A DNA stretch of 7,277 bases, from IMG/VR virus record IMGVR_UViG_2645727775_000011, positions 1 to 7,277 of that record; one strand, written 5' to 3'. This stretch comes from a virus (Duplodnaviria; Heunggongvirae; Uroviricota; Caudoviricetes). Both the position numbers and the translations under genes were made by a program. Shown here in pieces: positions 1-7,277 of this stretch. The notes under the pieces are model-generated. The model saw only the letters and a list, made by a program, of their open reading frames with translations. It was not told the DNA's origin and did no database searches. Numbering within the stretch: the stretch's first letter is position 1; each line of letters starts with the position of its first letter.

Positions 1-25
1 TTTATCTAGCTATAAAGCACATCTA

Positions 26-217
26 TTGGATATGCATTTTCAATACATTGATAATTTAACGGAAGAACCAATACCAGTTGAAGATGATCTTATTTCCTAT
101 GCTTTAGACACAGGAAGTTTTTACCATCCAGAAACTGGCGAATTGGTTGATAATTTTAGCCAGTATCTTTATCCATACTTTACTCCTTCGAGTCTTTTGG
201 AGAGTCTGCATGAGTGA
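26..217 (+). CDS. Small acidic ORF, possibly the 3' end of a longer gene running off the window start; translationally coupled to the downstream nuclease-like gene
   Basis: ORF track 26..217 begins at a TTG. The same frame has no stop between position 2 and 25, and the first in-frame ATG (32) has no Shine-Dalgarno, so a 5'-truncated longer gene is likely. Its stop TGA (215-217) overlaps the ATG (210-212) of the next gene. The product is acidic and aromatic-rich. Region is AT-rich. Confidence 0.4.
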   Translation: MDMHFQYIDNLTEEPIPVEDDLISYALDTGSFYHPETGELVDNFSQYLYPYFTPSSLLESLHE

Positions 218-851
218 TGTAAACATCTGTACTGCAGACCTTCAATCATTAATTAGAATGGATCCTGAATTTAGGGGAATGGTTCAAAGAAAATTAGCTG
301 CAGACAAAAATATTTTTGTAAAGCAACTCTATGAAGATTTAGACGACGCTATTCAGAATTTAGAAAATGACAAACACTTCTATCAAGATGCTAAGTGGGG
401 AGAGGACGAGCTAACAGCGTCGATCAAAAATTTCCTGAAAGGTAGGTTTTATGATGTTGAACATGATACTCAACATGGCGGTCACGTTGATTTATTAGTT
501 AAACATCAATTCGGAAAATTCGAATGGATCGGTGAAGCAAAATTATGGAGAGGCCCCAAATCTATTCATAATGGCTGGATTCAGCTAACCGAACGTTACG
601 GCACGGGTACGTCACGTGACGATCATGGAGGAATTCTAATTTATATAAAGTCTGACAAATCAGCAGTAAAATTCAATGAATGGAAAGAATTTTTCTCTAC
701 GACCGTTTCGGACGCAGAAATTGAAGCGGAAGGCTCTCCCCTCCGCTTTAAGAGTATCACAAAGCATCCAGCAACAGCGCTTCCATATCATGTAAGACAC
801 ATGGGAGTATCCTTATACCATTACACTGGTAAAAAAACCGCTGACTCTTAA
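210..851 (+). CDS. Putative PD-(D/E)xK-fold nuclease (about 213 aa): restriction-endonuclease-like, toxin or defence effector candidate
   Basis: ATG at 210 is preceded by GGAG (199-202) at 7 nt; the track's TTG start at 147 is rejected. The translation contains GGHVDLLV followed 16 residues later by EWIGEAK, matching the hhD...ExK core of PD-(D/E)xK nucleases, with a preceding Glu-rich helix. AT-rich composition. No database search was possible. Confidence 0.55.
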   Translation: MSDVNICTADLQSLIRMDPEFRGMVQRKLAADKNIFVKQLYEDLDDAIQNLENDKHFYQDAKWGEDELTASIKNFLKGRFYDVEHDTQHGGHVDLLVKHQFGKFEWIGEAKLWRGPKSIHNGWIQLTERYGTGTSRDDHGGILIYIKSDKSAVKFNEWKEFFSTTVSDAEIEAEGSPLRFKSITKHPATALPYHVRHMGVSLYHYTGKKTADS

Positions 852-1369
852 CTGGTAATTGCTATATATCCAGTCAAAAAACCTAAGGCTTTTTGCAATC
901 TTTTACGAATTGTTCCATCTGAACATCCTTGTTGCTTTGCAATAGCACGAAGAGATAAACCAATCACGAAATGAGCAACAATTAACTCATATTCTTGTTG
1001 CTTATATCTTTCTAACCTAAGGATACTAATGTCAATAATTCGCCCTTCATCATTGCTGCACTGACGACGTGATTTTTTACCATGAGGAACAACATTTTTA
1101 TATTTATCAGCTATTTCCTGCCAATCAATAGAACTATTACCAGCCACAACCCAAGCCCCCCAATCGTCTAAAATCTCACATATATCAACATTACTATCCA
1201 TCTGTTTTTTATTTTCTATTTTGAAATAACCAAGCAGCATTCTAGCCATTGTTGTTATTTCTATACTTGTAACTGACTCATAAGCATGAGGAGAAACAAT
1301 TCTCTCATCACTTAATGCCCAATCACTAAGGTTTGCTATTTCCAACAATCGTTCTTTAGTTATTCCCAT
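848..1369 (-). CDS. Phage antitermination protein Q-like (about 173 aa) with C-terminal sigma-70 region-4-like HTH
   Basis: ATG at 1369 is preceded by GGAG (1378..1375) at 5 nt; the track's GTG at 1381 is probably not the start. Motifs WGAW, RRQCSND and CSDGTIRKRLQKALG recall the Q antiterminator family (QuuD-like), from memory. It is the last gene of the minus-strand early operon. Its stop overlaps the stop of the convergent plus-strand gene (848-851). Confidence 0.55.
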   Translation of the reverse strand: MGITKERLLEIANLSDWALSDERIVSPHAYESVTSIEITTMARMLLGYFKIENKKQMDSNVDICEILDDWGAWVVAGNSSIDWQEIADKYKNVVPHGKKSRRQCSNDEGRIIDISILRLERYKQQEYELIVAHFVIGLSLRAIAKQQGCSDGTIRKRLQKALGFLTGYIAITS

Positions 1370-1380
1370 TATTATCTCCA

Positions 1381-1396
1381 CCGCCCTTTCGGGCGG
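1381..1396. promoter_or_regulatory. GC-only stem-loop (CCGCCC-TTTC-GGGCGG) directly upstream of the Q-like RBS
   Basis: Perfect 6-bp G/C stem with a 4-nt loop. On the minus-strand transcript it ends 3 nt before the Q-like Shine-Dalgarno. No strong U-tract follows on either strand. Confidence 0.35.
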
Positions 1397-1501
1397 CCTC
1401 CTGATGATTTGAGGGTGCAGGAATCCCTCCGGTTAAGGATTTAATAAAAATCGTTTCTGATTTAAATCTTCAGTATTTAGTTGTTAGTCGGTTTATAGCC
1501 T

Positions 1502-1813
1502 TTATGCTTCGACCTTATTTCTCAGCCATACACAAACCGGGCCATCTTCGGTGTCATGTATTGAACCAATAAACCATCCATTGCCCTCTGGTCGTTCCGG
1601 TTCCCATGCAGAAATATCAGCATCACACGCATCAAGGTCAGCACATCCTTCATCTCTGAAGCAGAGGACGTATTGAAGATTATTTTCCTCCATCCAGGCG
1701 TTAAACTCTTCCGTTGAAATATATTCCCGACCGTCACAGAATTTTTCATATTCAGGATGCGTCCAGCAGCCATATTCATCACGTACTACTGGTATTTCTT
1801 TAATTTCATTCAT
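1502..1813 (-). CDS. Hypothetical phage protein (103 aa), acidic with 6 Cys
   Basis: ATG at 1813 is preceded by GGGAG at 7 nt. Clean ORF; the overlapping alternate-frame ORF 1522..1782 is rejected. It occupies the nin-like position between the replication gene and Q. No recognisable family. Confidence 0.6.
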   Translation of the reverse strand: MNEIKEIPVVRDEYGCWTHPEYEKFCDGREYISTEEFNAWMEENNLQYVLCFRDEGCADLDACDADISAWEPERPEGNGWFIGSIHDTEDGPVCVWLRNKVEA

Positions 1814-2056
1814 TTCTGTTCTCCCACGTTTTCAGACTTTCACCACAGAACGGACAAAATGAAACCCGAACTGGTAATTTAGAAAATTCACCGGAACGCA
1901 ACATCACAAAATCAGGACCGCGAGTTAAACTCTCATTTCAGATTTTGTATATCAGCAGACCTTTTCGCATCGTGTATTCAGCATCACGCTCAAGGGACTT
2001 TGCCAGTGCTGCACATGGTTCTATCTTGTTGCCATTAACCTGGCATTTTGATTCAC

Positions 2057-2479
2057 TCACCGCACCACCTCCTCAAAATTCCCCTGATAAAACGCCAGTA
2101 CGCGCTGCATAGCTTCGCTCTTCCGGCACTCGCGACAGATTATGTTCTGACGCCTGTCGTAGCGACGTATTTCTCCGTCAGGTAATGACCAGATAAGGTC
2201 CGGATCAACCGCAGATGGTTTCTTCAGCTTTGCCCTTGAGAGCTTTTTACGGGCATTTTGCCAGTCCTTACGCGCCTGTTCAGACGGGAATAACCCGTAA
2301 CCAGAGTTGTATACATCGCCACTGGCAACCAGCTCTCTGGCCAGAACGCTCATCAGATATCTTGTTGCCCCAGTTTTAGTTTCCAGTTGTCGTAACGTCT
2401 CGCGCCCACTCTGGCGTACGAGTTCAACAACCTGCCCTTTAATTTTTTCCCGCTCTTCTTGTGTAAAAACTTTTGCCAC
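2057..2479 (-). CDS. Hypothetical basic protein (140 aa) with possible winged-helix region and C-terminal CxxC
   Basis: GTG start at 2479 is preceded by a perfect AGGAGG at 5 nt. It lies immediately downstream of the initiator gene in the same operon. The K/R-rich sequence suggests nucleic-acid binding. No recognisable family. Confidence 0.6.
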   Translation of the reverse strand: MAKVFTQEEREKIKGQVVELVRQSGRETLRQLETKTGATRYLMSVLARELVASGDVYNSGYGLFPSEQARKDWQNARKKLSRAKLKKPSAVDPDLIWSLPDGEIRRYDRRQNIICRECRKSEAMQRVLAFYQGNFEEVVR

Positions 2480-2519
2480 AAGCCCTCCTGAAAATTACCT
2501 CATGACCAGAAATTAACAC

Positions 2520-3452
2520 TTACCCCCTGAAGCCCGGCGGAATTTCAGTGTCCGGTTCAGAAATGTGATTCACGCAACGCTGCGCAGGCGAACGCCCCAG
2601 GCGGATAACCAGTTCATCCCATTTTTCCCGGAGTTTTGCCGGACTCATGATGTTTTTTACCCAGAACGAATCCCGCTGGAGACGCCCAAACATTTCACAA
2701 ATTTGTCTGTGAGTTCTGCCATCCAGCATCCGCATTGTGCGAACGTCATTGGCCCATGCTGTCCAGTTGGGTTCTTTCGGTCTAGTGATCTCGCCATCAT
2801 AGCTGGCCGCCTGCTCGTAAAGACTCACGATTCGTCCCCAGATCCACTGTGCGCACACCAAATCTTCCTGACTTCCCCACTGGCGTTTTTTCGCACTGAA
2901 CACAACCGCGTCAGGGTGTCGGGTTAAAAAATCCTGTTCAGCCGTCTGCGGGTCCGGTTGCGAAGCGTCCGGACAAGAAGATCTTTTATCTGACGGATCA
3001 GGTTTTAATACTGACGGATCGGGGTCAATCATCGCCCCCCTAATCGGCAGTTTTTTATCAACAGTTGATCCATCAAAATTTGACGGGTCAACTGTTAACG
3101 GGTCATTTTTTGCCGGGCTAATTTTTCTTTTCGGTTTATATGACTCACGCGCCGCCGCCGCAGCTGCTTCGAGTTTTTCCACATTAAGCCGATAGATATT
3201 GCTTACATTACGCCCACCGACCTTACGCTCTTCCTTCGTCAGCCAGCCCTCTTTCGCCAGTTCTGCAATAGCCGATTTCACTGTGGATTCACTTCTTGCA
3301 CCGATCTGACGCCGGATAGTTTCAATGGCAGGCCATGACACGCCCTCGTCATTGCTGTAGTCTGCAAGACGGGCCATAACCGCCACCCTGGATAAGATCA
3401 TGCCGGTGAAGGCGCACCCTTCCCAGACAAGACCATGAAGCTTGCTGCTCAT
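2520..3452 (-). CDS. Replication initiation protein (lambda O-like architecture: N-terminal HTH, P/D/S-rich linker, C-terminal domain)
   Basis: ATG at 3452 (MSSKLHGLVW...) is preceded by GGGGG; the track's GTG at 3467 has no Shine-Dalgarno. The N-terminus has a winged-HTH-like segment (SWPAIETIRRQIGARSESTVKSAIAELAKEGWL). The middle is a low-complexity Pro/Asp/Ser linker encoded by repeated DNA. Its position after the cro-like and ydaT-like genes fits a lambdoid replication module. Confidence 0.7.
   Translation of the reverse strand: MSSKLHGLVWEGCAFTGMILSRVAVMARLADYSNDEGVSWPAIETIRRQIGARSESTVKSAIAELAKEGWLTKEERKVGGRNVSNIYRLNVEKLEAAAAAARESYKPKRKISPAKNDPLTVDPSNFDGSTVDKKLPIRGAMIDPDPSVLKPDPSDKRSSCPDASQPDPQTAEQDFLTRHPDAVVFSAKKRQWGSQEDLVCAQWIWGRIVSLYEQAASYDGEITRPKEPNWTAWANDVRTMRMLDGRTHRQICEMFGRLQRDSFWVKNIMSPAKLREKWDELVIRLGRSPAQRCVNHISEPDTEIPPGFRG
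2990..3160. repeat. Iteron-like direct repeats plus adjacent AT-rich tract inside the initiator gene: putative origin of replication
   Basis: Motif TGACGG(A/G)TCA occurs at 2991-3000, 3012-3020 and 3081-3090, with TAACGGGTCA at 3096-3105 and a near-inverted copy TGATCCATCA at 3066-3075. A T-rich stretch follows (3105-3145). This parallels lambda ori lying within O. Confidence 0.4.
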
Positions 3453-3474
3453 AAAACCCCCGAACACCGTGCTT

Positions 3475-3900
3475 TTAGTGCATCACCACAGCATTCCCTG
3501 CCGGGCCGCCGCGATTCATCTGGTCATACAAAACAACCGCTGACGCAACAAAATCATCGACATCCTTCACCAGCCGATCCCTCCGTTCGACGATCTCACG
3601 GTAATATTCAGAACTGTGGCTGCGCATACGGGCCACCAGCAAAGGCGGCATCGCCTTTTCGATCGCCGGTAACAGAGCCTGCATTTTTTCAACAGCATCA
3701 GGGGTGTCTTTATCCAGCCAACGGAAAATTTTCTGGGTATTACGGGCCAGGGCTTCCGGATGGCTGTCGTCATACAGTTCCGGGAACGTCATTCCCAGCT
3801 CGAAATACGCTTTGGTAATTTTCGCAGCCGGCACTTTTTCGCCGTCCGGATGCGCCCAGACATTCATCGCCATGCGGATGTGTTCATGCTTGATTTTCAT
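3475..3900 (-). CDS. ydaT: YdaT-like protein (141 aa) of Rac-type prophages
   Basis: ATG at 3900 is preceded by AGGAG at 8 nt. The N-terminus MKIKHEHI matches my recollection of E. coli YdaT. It overlaps the 3' end of the upstream cro-like gene by 17 nt, as in ydaS-ydaT pairs. Confidence 0.65.
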   Translation of the reverse strand: MKIKHEHIRMAMNVWAHPDGEKVPAAKITKAYFELGMTFPELYDDSHPEALARNTQKIFRWLDKDTPDAVEKMQALLPAIEKAMPPLLVARMRSHSSEYYREIVERRDRLVKDVDDFVASAVVLYDQMNRGGPAGNAVVMH

Positions 3901-4165
3901 GAATCAAGCTCCTAGAAAGTGGTTGTGTTAACGTTTTGGTATCTTCCAGCTCGGGCCAAATATTCATCCAATCAAAAGGCCTTAGTTGCTGACGTGTAAC
4001 TTCACCATTACTGGCTCGCTCAATAAGGACACATAACGATGCCCCTAACACTTGACCTTTACTCAATGCCTTTCTTAGATAACCGATGCTGGTACCACAC
4101 TCGCATGCAAACATACGCTGTTCATCTGACGAAAGAGAATTGAGAAATATTCTTAATTCTTCCAT
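3884..4165 (-). CDS. ydaS: Cro-like transcriptional regulator, YdaS family (93 aa)
   Basis: ATG at 4165 is preceded by GGAG at 5 nt. The segment CVLIERASNGEVTRQQLRPFDW resembles the YdaS/Cro-like family as recalled. It is divergent from the CI-like gene across a 100-bp operator region. Confidence 0.65.
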   Translation of the reverse strand: MEELRIFLNSLSSDEQRMFACECGTSIGYLRKALSKGQVLGASLCVLIERASNGEVTRQQLRPFDWMNIWPELEDTKTLTQPLSRSLIHENQA

Positions 4166-4174
4166 AGCTACTCC

Positions 4175-4272
4175 TTAGTAAACACAGCAAAGAATACCCG
4201 CAGGTAAACAAAAGACAATACCCACAGGTTGTTTACCTTGCGGTAATCGCATCTATTATTTACCTATGGACA
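4175..4272. promoter_or_regulatory. Divergent promoter-operator region (oR-like) with TACC-N4-GGTA palindromes
   Basis: Perfect sites are TACCCGCAGGTA (4195-4206) and TACCTTGCGGTA (4234-4245); weaker copies are TACCCACAGGTT (4219-4230) and TACCTATGGACA (4261-4272), the last overlapping the repressor ATG. A candidate promoter for the repressor has -35 TTTACC (4232-4237) and -10 TATTAT (4254-4259), with no Shine-Dalgarno before ATG 4266, suggesting a leaderless mRNA as for lambda cI. Confidence 0.5.
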
Positions 4273-4685
4273 AATATGAATTTAGACGACAGCAACTCAT
4301 CAAAATTCGTGATGAGAAATGCGATGGTAAAGCGGTTAACGTGGCCAGAAAGATCGGGCGCGAGCCTTCTTATGTATCAAGAATGTTGTACCCAGAGGGG
4401 AAAAAGGGAAAAAAACGGATCGCTGATGATATGGTGGAGATTATCGAAGAGTCCTTTGGGTTACCCCGGGGATGGATGGATGGTATCGTTTCATCATCAA
4501 CGAACACAGCCTCCAGTTATGAAACAAGGGTTCTAACGCCACGACAACGTATTTTTTTAGATCTCTTAGACGAACTGCCAGAAAGTGAAGCGGATAAATT
4601 ATTAAAAACTCTTGAAGAGAAAAAACAGTATTACAATATGATCTACGAAGAAATCCGTAAAAAGAAAGCACAAAACGCATCATAG
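4266..4685 (+). CDS. CI-like prophage repressor (139 aa; DicA/RacR-like, XRE-type HTH)
   Basis: It is divergent from the cro-like gene. An HTH lies near residues 20-40 (AVNVARKIGREPSYVSRM). The C-terminal LPESEADKLL segment recalls DicA-type repressors. The alternate-frame ORF 4276..4536 is rejected. Confidence 0.7.
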   Translation: MDKYEFRRQQLIKIRDEKCDGKAVNVARKIGREPSYVSRMLYPEGKKGKKRIADDMVEIIEESFGLPRGWMDGIVSSSTNTASSYETRVLTPRQRIFLDLLDELPESEADKLLKTLEEKKQYYNMIYEEIRKKKAQNAS

Positions 4686-4727
4686 CTCACCAAACAACTA
4701 GTCACCAGTTAAGACACCGCAAAAATT

Positions 4728-4764
4728 TACCCATAGGTATTTACTTTTTAAATACCTATGGGTA
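4728..4764. promoter_or_regulatory. Perfect 16-bp inverted repeat built from two TACC-N4-GGTA sites: oL-like operator and/or intrinsic terminator downstream of the repressor gene
   Basis: Positions 4728-4743 pair perfectly with 4749-4764 around a 5-nt loop, and a T-rich run follows (4765-4775). The arms are TACCCATAGGTA and TACCTATGGGTA, the same motif as in the cro-cI intergenic region. A possible promoter overlaps it: -35 TTTACC (4726-4731) and -10 TTAAAT (4748-4753). Confidence 0.45.
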
Positions 4765-4950
4765 TCCTTCTTTTCATACCAACCCACCCCGCCCCACAGA
4801 ATGCAGGGCAATACTTCGAGTTACCAGGCAGTGGTCAGGGGTTAAGTAGCCAGCCCGAGGCGTAAGAACATGACGGCAGGGTTCAACTTTAATAACTATG
4901 CAGCAGGTTTTTGTTCCGCTACCCCGGCGTTAAGGGGAAATGAGGTCAAC

Positions 4951-5103
4951 ATGGATATGCTCAATCTTGGCAACAACGAATCTCTGGTATGTGGCGTGTT
5001 CCCCAACCAGGACGGCACGTTTACCGCGATGACGTATACCAGAAGCAAAACGTTTAAAACTGAAGCTGGCGCGCGTCGCTGGTTAACCAGAAACACTGAC
5101 TGA
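4951..5103 (+). CDS. ydfA: YdfA-like small protein (50 aa), first gene of the dicB-type operon
   Basis: ATG at 4951 is preceded by GAGG (4942-4945) at 5 nt; the track's upstream ATG at 4870 is less likely. The sequence MDMLNLGNNESLVCGVFPNQDGTFTAMTYT matches my recollection of Qin YdfA. Length is close to the 51 aa of YdfA. Confidence 0.55.
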   Translation: MDMLNLGNNESLVCGVFPNQDGTFTAMTYTRSKTFKTEAGARRWLTRNTD

Positions 5104-5114
5104 TGAGGTTGACG

Positions 5115-5516
5115 ATGGAATTTAAAGATTTACCAGTACCATTCCAGGAAATGGCATCGAATGTGGTTCGCTCTCAACTGGCGACTCTTGACCTGAGTAC
5201 CGTAGAAAAAGAAACCATCGATACTATATCCGGTAACGTGCGTCGTGCCTTTATAGGTCTGTATGAAGAGAAGCGCCTATTCGGCGGACAGAATTCGCCT
5301 GAAAACAAGAATCAAGCAAATGATGAGAAGCTGAAACACATTATCGCCTTACTTTTGGAAGACGCAAAACGTTTACAGCAACTGGAACCAAATGCAGGCA
5401 CAGAGGCCCGCATTTGGATTGCCATGAAATCACTCAAATGTGAAAGCAGTGATTATTTCAAAACAACAATTAAAACTACTCAACTTTCGGGAGAGCTACT
5501 GAAGAAATTGCCATAA
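5115..5516 (+). CDS. Hypothetical protein (133 aa) at the ydfB/ydfC position of the dicB operon
   Basis: ATG at 5115 is preceded by GAGG (5105-5108) at 6 nt; the track's start at 5103 overlaps the upstream stop. The stop of the ydfA-like gene (5101-5103) lies just upstream, indicating an operon. The 3' end overlaps the convergent antisense ORF by 41 nt. Confidence 0.55.
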   Translation: MEFKDLPVPFQEMASNVVRSQLATLDLSTVEKETIDTISGNVRRAFIGLYEEKRLFGGQNSPENKNQANDEKLKHIIALLLEDAKRLQQLEPNAGTEARIWIAMKSLKCESSDYFKTTIKTTQLSGELLKKLP

Positions 5517-5754
5517 GAGCATGGTCTTTCTCTTGTTCTGCAAGATGAGCATTAATACCTGGTATGGTTTTTTCAAATTTATCTATCTGTTGAATAACAA
5601 CTTCGCGGTATACGTTTGTTTTTGTACCACCAAGCGCAGCCGTTAATGCAGAAAGCATATTTAGTATCATATCAGTGCGATATGAAAGAATCCTGATAGC
5701 TTCATCTTGTTTTTCAATAATAGATTGCAGGGCCTCAATTTGCTTTTTATCCAT
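5476..5754 (-). CDS. Hypothetical AT-rich antisense ORF (92 aa), predicted helical, inside the dicB-type operon
   Basis: ATG at 5754 is preceded by a perfect AGGAGG (5765..5760) at 5 nt. The clean 93-codon ORF sits in an AT-rich block between GC-richer flanks. The track's upstream start at 5793 is rejected. No recognisable family. Confidence 0.5.
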   Translation of the reverse strand: MDKKQIEALQSIIEKQDEAIRILSYRTDMILNMLSALTAALGGTKTNVYREVVIQQIDKFEKTIPGINAHLAEQEKDHALMAISSVALPKVE

Positions 5755-6085
5755 TTCACCCTCCTGAGGGTTGGTAATTAAGGAGTTCTCCACGGGTCAG
5801 GTGGAGTGCGTGCGCCGGACACGGGTGAACATCCGGCACTGACAGTTTACTGAAAGGATATGTCCCTGAAAAGTCAGGGCATAACGCGAAAGCGCACGGC
5901 AAAATTGGTCTCTCTGTACGGTGTCGTTAAATTTAGTTCGACCGTGCGCTTCCGGTTGTGGCACTCCGCGAAATGGCGCGGCGGTAAGTATGGCGGGGTT
6001 ATTCCTTCCCCGTTGAGGACACCGGGTTGTCAGGTTGACCATACGCTTAAGCGACAACCCCGCTGCAACGCCCTCTGTTATCAAT

Positions 6086-6140
6086 TTTCTGGTGACGTTT
6101 GGCGGTATCAGTTTTACTCCGTGACTGCTCTGCCGCCGTT
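6086..6140 (+). ncRNA. dicF: DicF small RNA (ftsZ-targeting sRNA of Qin-type prophages)
   Basis: TTTCTGGTGACGTTTGGCGGTATCAGTTTTACTCCGTGACTGCTCTGCCGCC followed by a T-run (6139-6143) matches my recollection of E. coli DicF nearly exactly. It lies about 170 nt upstream of dicB, as in the K-12 operon. Confidence 0.75.
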
Positions 6141-6312
6141 TTTAAAGTGAATTTTGTGATGCGGTGAATGCGGCTGAGCGCACGCGGAACAGTTAAAACC
6201 AAAAACAGTGTTATGGGTGGATTCTCTGTATCCGGCGTTAATTGTTAACTGGTTAACGTCACCTGGAGGCACCAGGCACCACATCACAAAATTCATTGTT
6301 GAGGACGCGATA

Positions 6313-6501
6313 ATGGAAACGTTATTACCAAACGTTAATACGTCTGAAGGTTGTTTTGAAATTGGTGTCACTATCAGTAACCCTGTATTTACTGAAGATG
6401 CCATTAACAAGAGAAAACACGAACGGGAGCTATTAAATAAAATATGCATTCTTTCAATGCTGGCCCGTTTACGTCCGATACAAAAAGGATGCTGGCAATG
6501 A
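6313..6501 (+). CDS. dicB: Cell division inhibitor DicB (62 aa)
   Basis: ATG at 6313 is preceded by GAGGA at 7 nt. The product METLLPNVNTSEGCFEIGVTISNPVFTEDAINKRK... matches recalled DicB sequence and length. It follows DicF. The track's extended start at 6208 is rejected. Confidence 0.8.
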   Translation: METLLPNVNTSEGCFEIGVTISNPVFTEDAINKRKHERELLNKICILSMLARLRPIQKGCWQ

Positions 6502-6689
6502 ATACAGCATTTGCACTTGTTCTGACAGTTTTTCTTGTTTCCGGAGAGCCAGTTGATATTGCAGTCAGTGTTCACAGGACAATGCAGGAGTGTGTGACTG
6601 CAGCAACCGAACAGAAAATTCCCGGTAACTGTTACCCGGTCGATAAAGTTATTCACCAGGATAATAACGAAATCCCGGCAGGTCTTTAA
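6498..6689 (+). CDS. ydfD: YdfD-like small lysis/membrane protein (63 aa)
   Basis: ATG at 6498 overlaps the dicB stop (ATGA) and is preceded by AAGGA. It has an N-terminal hydrophobic segment (AFALVLTVFLVSG) and two Cys. Length and position match ydfD downstream of dicB. Confidence 0.6.
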   Translation: MNTAFALVLTVFLVSGEPVDIAVSVHRTMQECVTAATEQKIPGNCYPVDKVIHQDNNEIPAGL

Positions 6690-6781
6690 AACAGTTCCGT
6701 AATAAACATCCGGTTTCATTCTTATATGCCAGCAATGGCAGGGATTTGTTCACCCTTAAATCTGTAATGAGGTAAAACAAA

Positions 6782-7277
6782 ATGAGTAAAGTCTTTATTT
6801 GCGCTGCTATTCCTGATGAACAGGCCATAAAAGAAGATAGCGCTGTTGCGGTGGCCACTGCCATTGAAGCTGGTGATGAGCGTCGCGCACGCGCAAAATT
6901 TCATTGGCAATTTCTGGAGCAATTCCCTGCAGCTCAGGACTGCGCTTATAAATTTATTGTCTGTGAGGATAAACCCGGCATACCCCGCCCTGCCCTCGAT
7001 TCCTGGGATGCTGAATATATGCAGGAAAACCGCTGGGATGAGGAGTCTGCTTCCTTTGTCCCGGTTGAGACTGAATCAGATCCGATGAACGTCACTTTTG
7101 ACAAGCTGGCCCCTGAAGTACCGAACGCTGTCATGGTTAAGTTCGACACATGTGAAAACATCACCGTTGATATGGTTATTAGCGCACAGGAATTGTTGCA
7201 GGAAGACATGGCAACATTCGACGGACATATCGTTGAAGCGTTGATGAAAATGCCAGAAGTTAACGCCATGTATCCGG
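6782..7277 (+). CDS. ydfE: Acidic hypothetical protein, YdfE-like; 3' end runs off the window (at least 165 aa)
   Basis: ATG at 6782 is preceded by TGAGG (6768-6772). The frame stays open to the window end and was not in the ORF track because it lacks a stop. The product (MSKVFICAAIPDEQ...) is Asp/Glu-rich. Position after ydfD matches ydfE in Qin. Confidence 0.5.
   Translation, partial: MSKVFICAAIPDEQAIKEDSAVAVATAIEAGDERRARAKFHWQFLEQFPAAQDCAYKFIVCEDKPGIPRPALDSWDAEYMQENRWDEESASFVPVETESDPMNVTFDKLAPEVPNAVMVKFDTCENITVDMVISAQELLQEDMATFDGHIVEALMKMPEVNAMYP

Follow-up and report, generated by a model that had tools for sequence, protein, structure and literature searches.

Sequence comparisons firmly indicate that a 92-codon open reading frame (ORF) on the minus strand of a prophage segment, at positions 5476-5754, is a genuine protein-coding accessory gene, and as firmly that it is one of the cargoes a variable slot can hold. 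The segment is a 7,277-nucleotide (nt) stretch of viral DNA (Caudoviricetes; IMG/VR record IMGVR_UViG_2645727775_000011, positions 1 to 7,277), and this whole stretch is referred to below as the window. We consider that the ORF is probably a moron-type accessory gene that sits in a conserved antisense cargo slot within a Qin/Rac-like prophage's early-left (dicBF) operon. It opposes the dicF-dicB operon, as the original prediction, made from the letters of the sequence alone, had proposed.

A protein-coding gene antisense to the dicBF operon

The ATG of the ORF (5754-5752) is preceded, after the 5-nt spacer GTGAA (5759-5755), by the Shine-Dalgarno (SD) sequence AGGAGG (5765-5760, minus strand), so that the predicted arrangement of AGGAGG, spacer and ATG is present at 5765-5752; a version extended to a GTG start reaches 5793. 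The other measurements on which attention was first drawn to this frame also agree with the original prediction: the ORF is AT-rich (36.9% G+C, compared with 45-55% in the flanks, 54.5% in the pre-DicF region 5755-6086 and 49% in ydfA), it overlaps the last 41 nt (5476-5516) of a convergent 133-codon gene on the plus strand (5115-5516), and the distance from that gene to DicF, given as about 570 bp, is 571 nt.

The ORF had been considered unlikely to arise by chance, and this is borne out in three ways. First, the probability of 93 open codons for the given base composition is about 0.001 per frame. Second, dinucleotide shuffles of the AT-rich block yielded an ORF of at least 92 codons in 23 of 2000 cases. 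Third, comparison with a 72%-identical Salmonella gene gives a ratio of nonsynonymous to synonymous substitution rates (dN/dS) of 0.23 in the ORF frame only: differences fall 19, 9 and 29 times at codon positions 1, 2 and 3, most of them thus at third positions, whereas the other five frames of the same comparison contain 4-11 stops and give ratios of 0.4-3.1. Within the 41-nt overlap it is likewise the ORF frame that is conserved, and the C-terminal motif SSVALP is kept in relatives without an overlapping partner. Annotation is in agreement. The NCBI pipeline (PGAP) annotates the identical ORF as a hypothetical protein (WP_000358771.1), and the hidden Markov model (HMM) of phrog_18692, a family of unknown function, matches it at full length, residues 1-92 aligning with profile positions 1-92 (E 5.9e-63).

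Searching 5.8 billion proteins with a word index gave 22 relatives, every one of them from E. coli or Salmonella, and a full HMM search added four more members (90-93 residues, 33-45% identity, with length and motifs in common) from P2-like and other lambdoid prophages. The distant relatives P0023, P0024, P0026 and P0028 also match phrog_18692, and positions R26, L31, S35, R50, F60, E75-K76, S85 and P89 are conserved in the family. A 1384-residue match (P0025) was rejected as a relative: it is an ankyrin-repeat protein whose repeat resembles only residues 64-85 of the ORF product (IPGINAHLAEQEKDHALMAISS), and the match was judged spurious because this segment is not conserved in the ORF family. 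Among 5426 complete E. coli genomes, 127 hold the ORF sequence, always on the chromosome and with 121 copies at least 99% identical; a tblastn search of 50,697 GenBank phage records gave no match, and a scan of representative genomes with the ORF protein alignment found no relatives. Members of the family adjoin different repressor types and early genes, including a P2-like cox operon (locus L014). The comparison of these loci firmly supports carriage of the ORF, together with the conserved leader described below, into several prophage backbones and immunity types.

One of several cargoes behind a conserved leader

In the Qin prophage of K-12 and in strain S103EC, both the SD and the ORF are lacking and ydfC directly adjoins the conserved region at about position 5769 of the window, and the same place in other prophages is taken by convergent pairs of 135 (plus) and 77 (minus) codons or of 124 (plus) and 73 (minus) codons. 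The proposal that the ORF is an insertion therefore stands insofar as comparison with K-12 Qin and with most DicF prophages shows the ORF to be an indel, but the block that varies relative to prophages with other cargo is larger than the ORF. This block spans approximately 5280-5754, its left boundary being the loss of nucleotide identity to a type C prophage, and it takes in the C-terminal half of the 133-codon gene.

The right-hand side of the slot is conserved. E. coli types A (the ORF), B and C, whose antisense genes are unrelated, share an identical ...AACTCCTTAATTACCAACCCTCAGGAGGGTGAA-ATG upstream; the leader is also kept upstream of the ORF in Salmonella and in a P2-like prophage, and it precedes further cargo in Edwardsiella and Pluralibacter. 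We gathered instances by scanning representative genomes and IMG/VR with a pattern describing the first hairpin of the leader (hairpin 1), which gave loci in Escherichia, Shigella, E. albertii, Salmonella, Edwardsiella and Pluralibacter. In 79 of the 122 instances fetched (about 65%, K-12-like) no ORF follows the leader, and the remaining 43 carry cargo from at least seven families without BLAST links: type B (77 residues, 11 instances), type A (92 residues, nine), type C (73 residues, eight), type A' (91 residues, six), type D (a 30-residue peptide, then a 156-residue protein with two transmembrane (TM) segments; four), type F (96 residues, three) and type E (104 residues, one). Type A' is a remote homologue of the ORF (hhalign 96%); types B and C were rejected as such (hhalign probability 0.1%). 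The strong SD and ATG stressed by the original prediction are therefore present as described, but as part of a conserved leader common to at least seven such families, including unrelated cargo ORFs elsewhere, and not as a private possession of this ORF.

All of types A, B, C, D and E fall into PHROG families of unknown function. Scans of the other cargo types and of the ORF relatives yielded only noise with PADLOC-DB 2.0 and nothing above noise with Pfam and NCBIfam. The Edwardsiella loci L074/L083, and L075 as well, have as cargo a two-gene unit just after the leader, encoding a proline-rich peptide of 30-32 residues (MRINQFGG...) and then a 156-residue protein with two hydrophobic segments (phrog_6315, unknown function).

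Structure of the leader RNA

From the predicted transcription start to the ORF the leader measures about 83-85 nt. On the minus strand it holds hairpin 1 (GCCGGAUG...GUGUCCGGC, 5814-5837); hairpin 2 (CUCCAC-N7-GUGGAG, 5788-5806), three of whose six pairs covary across prophages; and an anti-SD segment CUCCU (5781-5785), predicted to pair with AGGAG of the SD, in which a single pair covaries, being U-A in 12 sequences and A-U in four. Since hairpin 1 served as the search pattern and was thereby unable to vary, its conservation is not independent evidence.

The leaders compared for covariation are closely related. Across the 18 distinct cargo-bearing ones, 97.4% of the cells of the three helices are paired, four pairs have changed on both sides, and none of 500 shuffles reached the observed covariation score; RNAalifold independently predicts the same three helices. 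As to strand, folding of 226 nt gave z = -4.1 for the minus strand and z = -1.6 for the plus strand, and single-base variants whose pairing survives on the minus strand solely through G-U pairs are found in leaders with cargo (L011, L088, L166 and L165). An Rfam scan of 5400-6330 on both strands matched the leader to no family, its only returns being DicF, a sub-threshold STnc100 match and noise.

Two further elements lie between the leader and DicF. A perfect palindrome or hairpin, CCCTGAAAAGTCAGGG (5864-5879), overlaps the -35-like hexamer of the antisense promoter candidate described below, and other prophages have CTCTGA..TCAGAG at this site, a symmetric double change; it may act as a protein operator or, in the dicBF precursor, as an RNA hairpin. 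Farther on, the complementary segments CCGTGCGCTTTC (5888-5899) and GGAAGCGCACGG (5942-5953), in minus-strand reading, are kept in E. coli, in Salmonella (L004) and in the P2-like L014, while the 40-50 nt between them vary, a long-range complementarity that suggests a structured pre-DicF element.

Promoter and terminator candidates

By eye we found a candidate sigma-70 promoter at 5844-5872 on the minus strand, with -35 TTTTCA (5872-5867), a 17-nt spacer and -10 TAAACT (5849-5844), and with a predicted start at about 5837; from the end of TAAACT to hairpin 1 is a distance of 6 nt. Eight of ten upstream contexts share a TAnnnT hexamer placed 4-9 nt ahead of hairpin 1, and in four of these eight it has a TGn extension. 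The background expectation is about 0.12 per search window and the binomial tail about 1.5e-6, some of the contexts being related and several unrelated in sequence. This recurrence supports a transcription start inferred to lie at the foot of hairpin 1.

For a minus-strand transcript from the ORF, the next terminator-like site in the window is a perfect 16-bp palindrome with T-runs on both sides (4728-4764, both strands), between the dicA-position gene and ydfA. A terminator-like hairpin lies 20-35 nt past the stop codon of the relatives in L014 and in the lambdoid L017. In L017, a strong promoter (TTGACA-17-GATTAT with TG, 1000-1028, minus strand) lies on the repressor side and faces the ORF, and the terminator-like hairpin of the ORF (845-865, plus strand) sits between promoter and ORF, giving a clean convergent arrangement.

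The protein product

The product is a slightly acidic protein of about 10 kDa (pI 5.7; grand average of hydropathy, GRAVY, -0.1). Its maximum Kyte-Doolittle hydropathy over a 19-residue window is 0.93, and it has no membrane-spanning stretch. Two AlphaFold2 (AF2) runs, on alignments of eight and seven sequences, both gave three helices (residues 3-41/43, 46/47-59/63 and 69-85) with a mean predicted local distance difference test (pLDDT) score of 69-71. Together, these properties and models point to a soluble three-helix protein.

Searches for a function were negative. Foldseek comparison of both models with PDB and BFVD gave no match with E below 1, a profile search of PDB sequences nothing below E 0.4, and scans with Pfam, NCBIfam and PADLOC-DB 2.0 no match for the ORF. 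The best match in the scans of the ORF, its relatives and the other cargo, RelB-like (E 0.011, 15.9 bits where the cutoff is 50), was dismissed as noise. A type I toxin, as a rule a hydrophobic peptide of under 60 residues, was rejected on the length of the product (92 residues), its GRAVY of -0.1, its lack of a TM helix and the lack of an Rfam antitoxin family in 5400-6330. With regard to SieB, there is neither a Pfam SieB match nor a membrane segment. The superinfection-exclusion or readthrough-regulator function first suggested for the product thus finds no support in PADLOC, Pfam, NCBIfam, PDB or BFVD.

What might the gene do?

The moron reading fits the ORF in two respects, in that the gene is present or absent at the same junction in related prophages and in that its base composition is distinct; in a third, a terminator of its own, none was found in the window. 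On this reading, the weak sigma-70 promoter TTTTCA-17-TAAACT would start a minus-strand transcript near 5837, in which a leader of about 83 nt, with two hairpins and an anti-SD:SD stem, would precede the strong SD and ATG. Unrelated genes follow this leader in different prophages, and the anti-SD stem would tune their translation. The ORF would be expressed in the lysogen, while the early operon is repressed, and its protein may bind a protein target, most likely to the benefit of the lysogen, for example by excluding other phages. With no terminator after the ORF in the window, the transcript would continue antisense through the 133-codon gene and ydfA, and a reduction of leaky dicBF transcription could be a side effect. 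Here we infer the gene's own promoter, its expression under repression, its anti-SD-tuned translation and the lysogen benefit, the last by analogy alone because no cargo family matches a defence or exclusion model. A lysogen-expressed effector of the moron type, with interference with dicBF as a by-product, is our most economical guess at function, and we rank a purely RNA-level function, an effect on the early genes of the prophage itself and a toxin-antitoxin pairing below it.

A broader proposal is possible, and we put it forward tentatively: that the leader of about 85 nt serves DicF-carrying enterobacterial prophages as a cis-regulatory cargo platform not described before, coupling translation of the cargo to whether the early lytic operon is on or off, and that the ORF family and six other cargo families form a pool of new lysogen-expressed small effectors, such as exclusion or anti-phage proteins. 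The coupling would follow from the full complementarity between the leader and the dicBF precursor's long untranslated region.

Several observations weigh against the moron reading. With regard to transcription, the promoter candidate matches 8 of 12 consensus positions, below the scan threshold; a consensus promoter scan of the window found none upstream of the ORF, its sole minus-strand match being far off (6248-6221); no terminator was found after the ORF in the window; and a search of the literature for expression data on the ORF found none. With regard to the leader, variation in hairpin 1 is unobservable in a pattern-selected set; the 114-nt leader of the window, taken alone, folds no better than shuffles (z = -0.96), and its minimum free energy structure pairs the SD differently from the consensus; and two variants fit plus-strand pairing better, both of them in prophages without cargo (L157 and L179). 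About 65% of leader-bearing prophages have no cargo and yet keep the leader. Because cargo is missing from two thirds of them, the leader may be conserved mainly as part of the DicF/dicBF precursor, and thus may serve the plus-strand transcript instead. With regard to the products, the AF2 models are of modest confidence, and no cargo family matched known defence or exclusion models.

Two alternatives concern what the gene acts upon. In the first, the function lies in RNA or in transcription: convergent transcription would collide, or the RNA pair, with dicBF transcripts, as in an excludon or in transcriptional interference, thereby silencing the toxic DicF and DicB in the lysogen, with a secondary role for the protein. 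That the promoter-like element and leader are retained in the 65% of prophages without cargo, K-12 Qin among them, is in keeping with such a role, as are the complementarity of the leader to the long untranslated region upstream of DicF and the prospect of a transcript antisense to the 133-codon gene and ydfA as far as 4728-4764. Purifying selection on the protein frame (dN/dS 0.23) is not what this alternative leads one to expect, nor is a protein family kept down to 33% identity in other phage types or a strong SD kept before every cargo, and the terminators directly after the ORF in L014 and L017 would limit antisense read-through. We therefore regard it as unlikely.

The second alternative, to which we attach the same low probability, is that the protein acts on the early functions of its own prophage and not against other phages, either neutralising a division inhibitor (DicB, Kil or the toxicity of the DicF operon) or modulating the repressor switch. 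The family is always found in the early-left/immunity region, convergent with or just downstream of a repressor gene, and adjoins DicF, dicB or YdaE/kil-type genes, as such a role would have it. However, a slot that holds any of at least seven BLAST-unlinked families, or none, is unlike the site of a housekeeping regulator, and the family occurs with different repressor types and early genes, including the P2-like cox operon.

The overlapping forward gene

The original prediction placed the 133-codon gene at the ydfB/C position, a loose label that needs correcting: the gene is unrelated to YdfB and YdfC, and the window has neither. BLASTP comparison of the ORF and the 133-codon gene with YdfB and YdfC gave E above 1, and tblastn of YdfB and YdfC on the window returned nothing. 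In strain 214-4, ydfA, ydfB, ydfC and the 133-codon gene follow one another in series, and some prophages hold ydfB, ydfC and the 133-codon gene together.

Might the ORF and the C-terminal domain of the 133-residue protein constitute an obligate two-gene system of the toxin-antitoxin kind, coupled via their overlap? The forward genes of the slot share an N-terminal region of about 55 residues (MEFKDLP...) and then diverge jointly with the type of antisense gene. The C-terminal half of the 133-residue protein (LLLEDAKRLQQLEPNAGTEARIW) accompanies the ORF in both E. coli and Salmonella; in the latter it is a separate 71-codon gene with the same 41-nt overlap, and this overlap is found in E. coli, Salmonella L004 and the P2-like L014 alike. 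Against these points, such a partner is missing beside the family members of L008, L015, L017 and L018, and the LLLEDAK...NAGTEARI domain occurs in a protein of Edwardsiella L083, where the ORF is missing. The overlapping gene of L014 encodes an unrelated DicA-like helix-turn-helix (HTH) protein, which shares only the tail of about 17 residues forced by the overlap. A convergent arrangement is, moreover, not operonic, and no toxin-antitoxin model matched above noise. A type II toxin-antitoxin pair was rejected on co-occurrence, the two genes not being obligate partners, and we hold any obligate pairing to be highly improbable. Only one plus-strand frame is open across the 41-nt overlap, so that read-in would give the same tail; from this, the missing partner in several loci, the L083 domain without the ORF and the tail-only sharing in L014, the overlap looks like read-in of whichever gene lies upstream and not like functional coupling.

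Least credible of all, and hardly worth retaining, is the view that the ORF is a chance open frame, unexpressed and an artefact of gene calling: it is short, overlaps another gene, lacks a known domain and has low-confidence structure models, but its dN/dS of 0.23 with third-position differences and closed alternative frames, its homologues that keep length and motifs down to 33% identity, its conserved strong SD spacing and the chance of about 0.001 per frame all speak for a gene.

Prophage setting

The window is a segment of a Qin/Rac-like lambdoid prophage, and 4700-6300 is 99.9% identical to the prophage adjoining ompW in enteropathogenic E. coli (EPEC) O127:H6 E2348/69. Its left part carries minus-strand genes for antiterminator Q, a DUF977 protein, a replication-type HTH protein, a ydaT-like and a cro-like product. 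On the plus strand, the dicA-position gene (4266-4685, 139 codons; hypothetical in RefSeq) has no Pfam HTH match and a DicA-like match that is C-terminal only (24.5 bits). There follow ydfA (4948-5103) and, directly after it, the 133-codon gene (phrog_1363). The early operon continues downstream with the DicF small RNA (6087-6138, an Rfam match on the strand opposite to the ORF), dicB (6313-6501) and a ydfD-like gene (6498-6689). In K-12 Qin the interval corresponding to the 571 nt before DicF, from ydfC, is about 340 nt.

Between DicF and dicB, the sub-threshold STnc100 match lies at 6150-6290 on the plus strand (35.2 bits, gathering score 47, E 8e-6). In the type C prophage L011, matches to isrK and C4 antisense RNA (3122-3310, plus strand) come after a truncated dicB and adjoin a Rha-family gene.

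Significance and comparison with known systems

The ydfC-dicF stretch has been described as a long untranslated region, and non-conserved genes have been drawn only as blanks (PMC5069750). We found no work on the ORF when searching the literature for it, for its accession and for antisense or convergent transcription at dicF/ydfC. Already known are the annotation of the ORF as hypothetical and, as a general kind, prophage accessory or moron genes; the potentially new part may be the shared structured leader with interchangeable cargo. DicF-carrying prophages occur in most E. coli genomes, the conserved pre-DicF flank being matched in 3336 of 5426 complete ones, and in about one third of the prophages sampled the pre-DicF stretch is preceded by an antisense cargo gene from one of at least seven BLAST-unlinked families behind one structured leader. 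These cargoes are a defined, readily cloned set of small prophage proteins for exclusion, defence or host-modulation screens, and they raise the question of whether antisense transcription from the leader contributes to silencing of the toxic dicBF operon. As regards annotation, the 92-codon ORF is confirmed as a true gene and its overlap with the plus-strand gene is real.

The moron concept of Juhala/Hendrix 2000 is said to denote an autonomous gene inserted between conserved phage genes of lambdoid prophages. The ORF resembles such genes in its presence or absence between conserved flanks, distinct base composition, orientation opposite to the operon and strong ribosome-binding site, and its relatives have a promoter-like element and a terminator; it differs in that its promoter and leader are common to unrelated cargo and in that no terminator is seen in the window. 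Variable cargo hotspots of P2 and P4 prophages reportedly hold anti-phage systems (the work of Rousset et al. 2022). The DicF-side slot is similar in consisting of a conserved flank followed by one of many unrelated small genes or by nothing, and in its occurrence in several enterobacterial genera and a P2-like prophage, whereas its cargo has no PADLOC match and only one flank, the leader, is strictly conserved.

Like rexAB of lambda and sieB of lambda and P22, the ORF is near the repressor and early-left operon and is plausibly expressed with the lytic operon off. It has no sequence or fold similarity to them, runs opposite to the operon and lacks a predicted membrane segment, whereas SieB is described as membrane-associated. 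With type I toxin mRNAs whose leaders sequester the SD (hok, tisB, zorO) it has in common a structured 5' leader, predicted anti-SD:SD pairing and a prophage location; it differs in its hydrophilic product of 92 residues without a TM helix, in that no antitoxin small RNA was identified and in the diversity of the cargo. As in excludons and convergent-promoter interference (Listeria excludons; coliphage 186 pR/pL; PMC5001618), the ORF unit converges and overlaps at 3' ends, and its mRNA would be antisense to a neighbouring operon, but relatives of the ORF carry terminators that would limit the overlap. Finally, although they have no similarity to YdfB and YdfC of K-12 and coexist with them in some prophages, the 133-codon gene and the ORF occupy the same operon interval, between ydfA and dicF.

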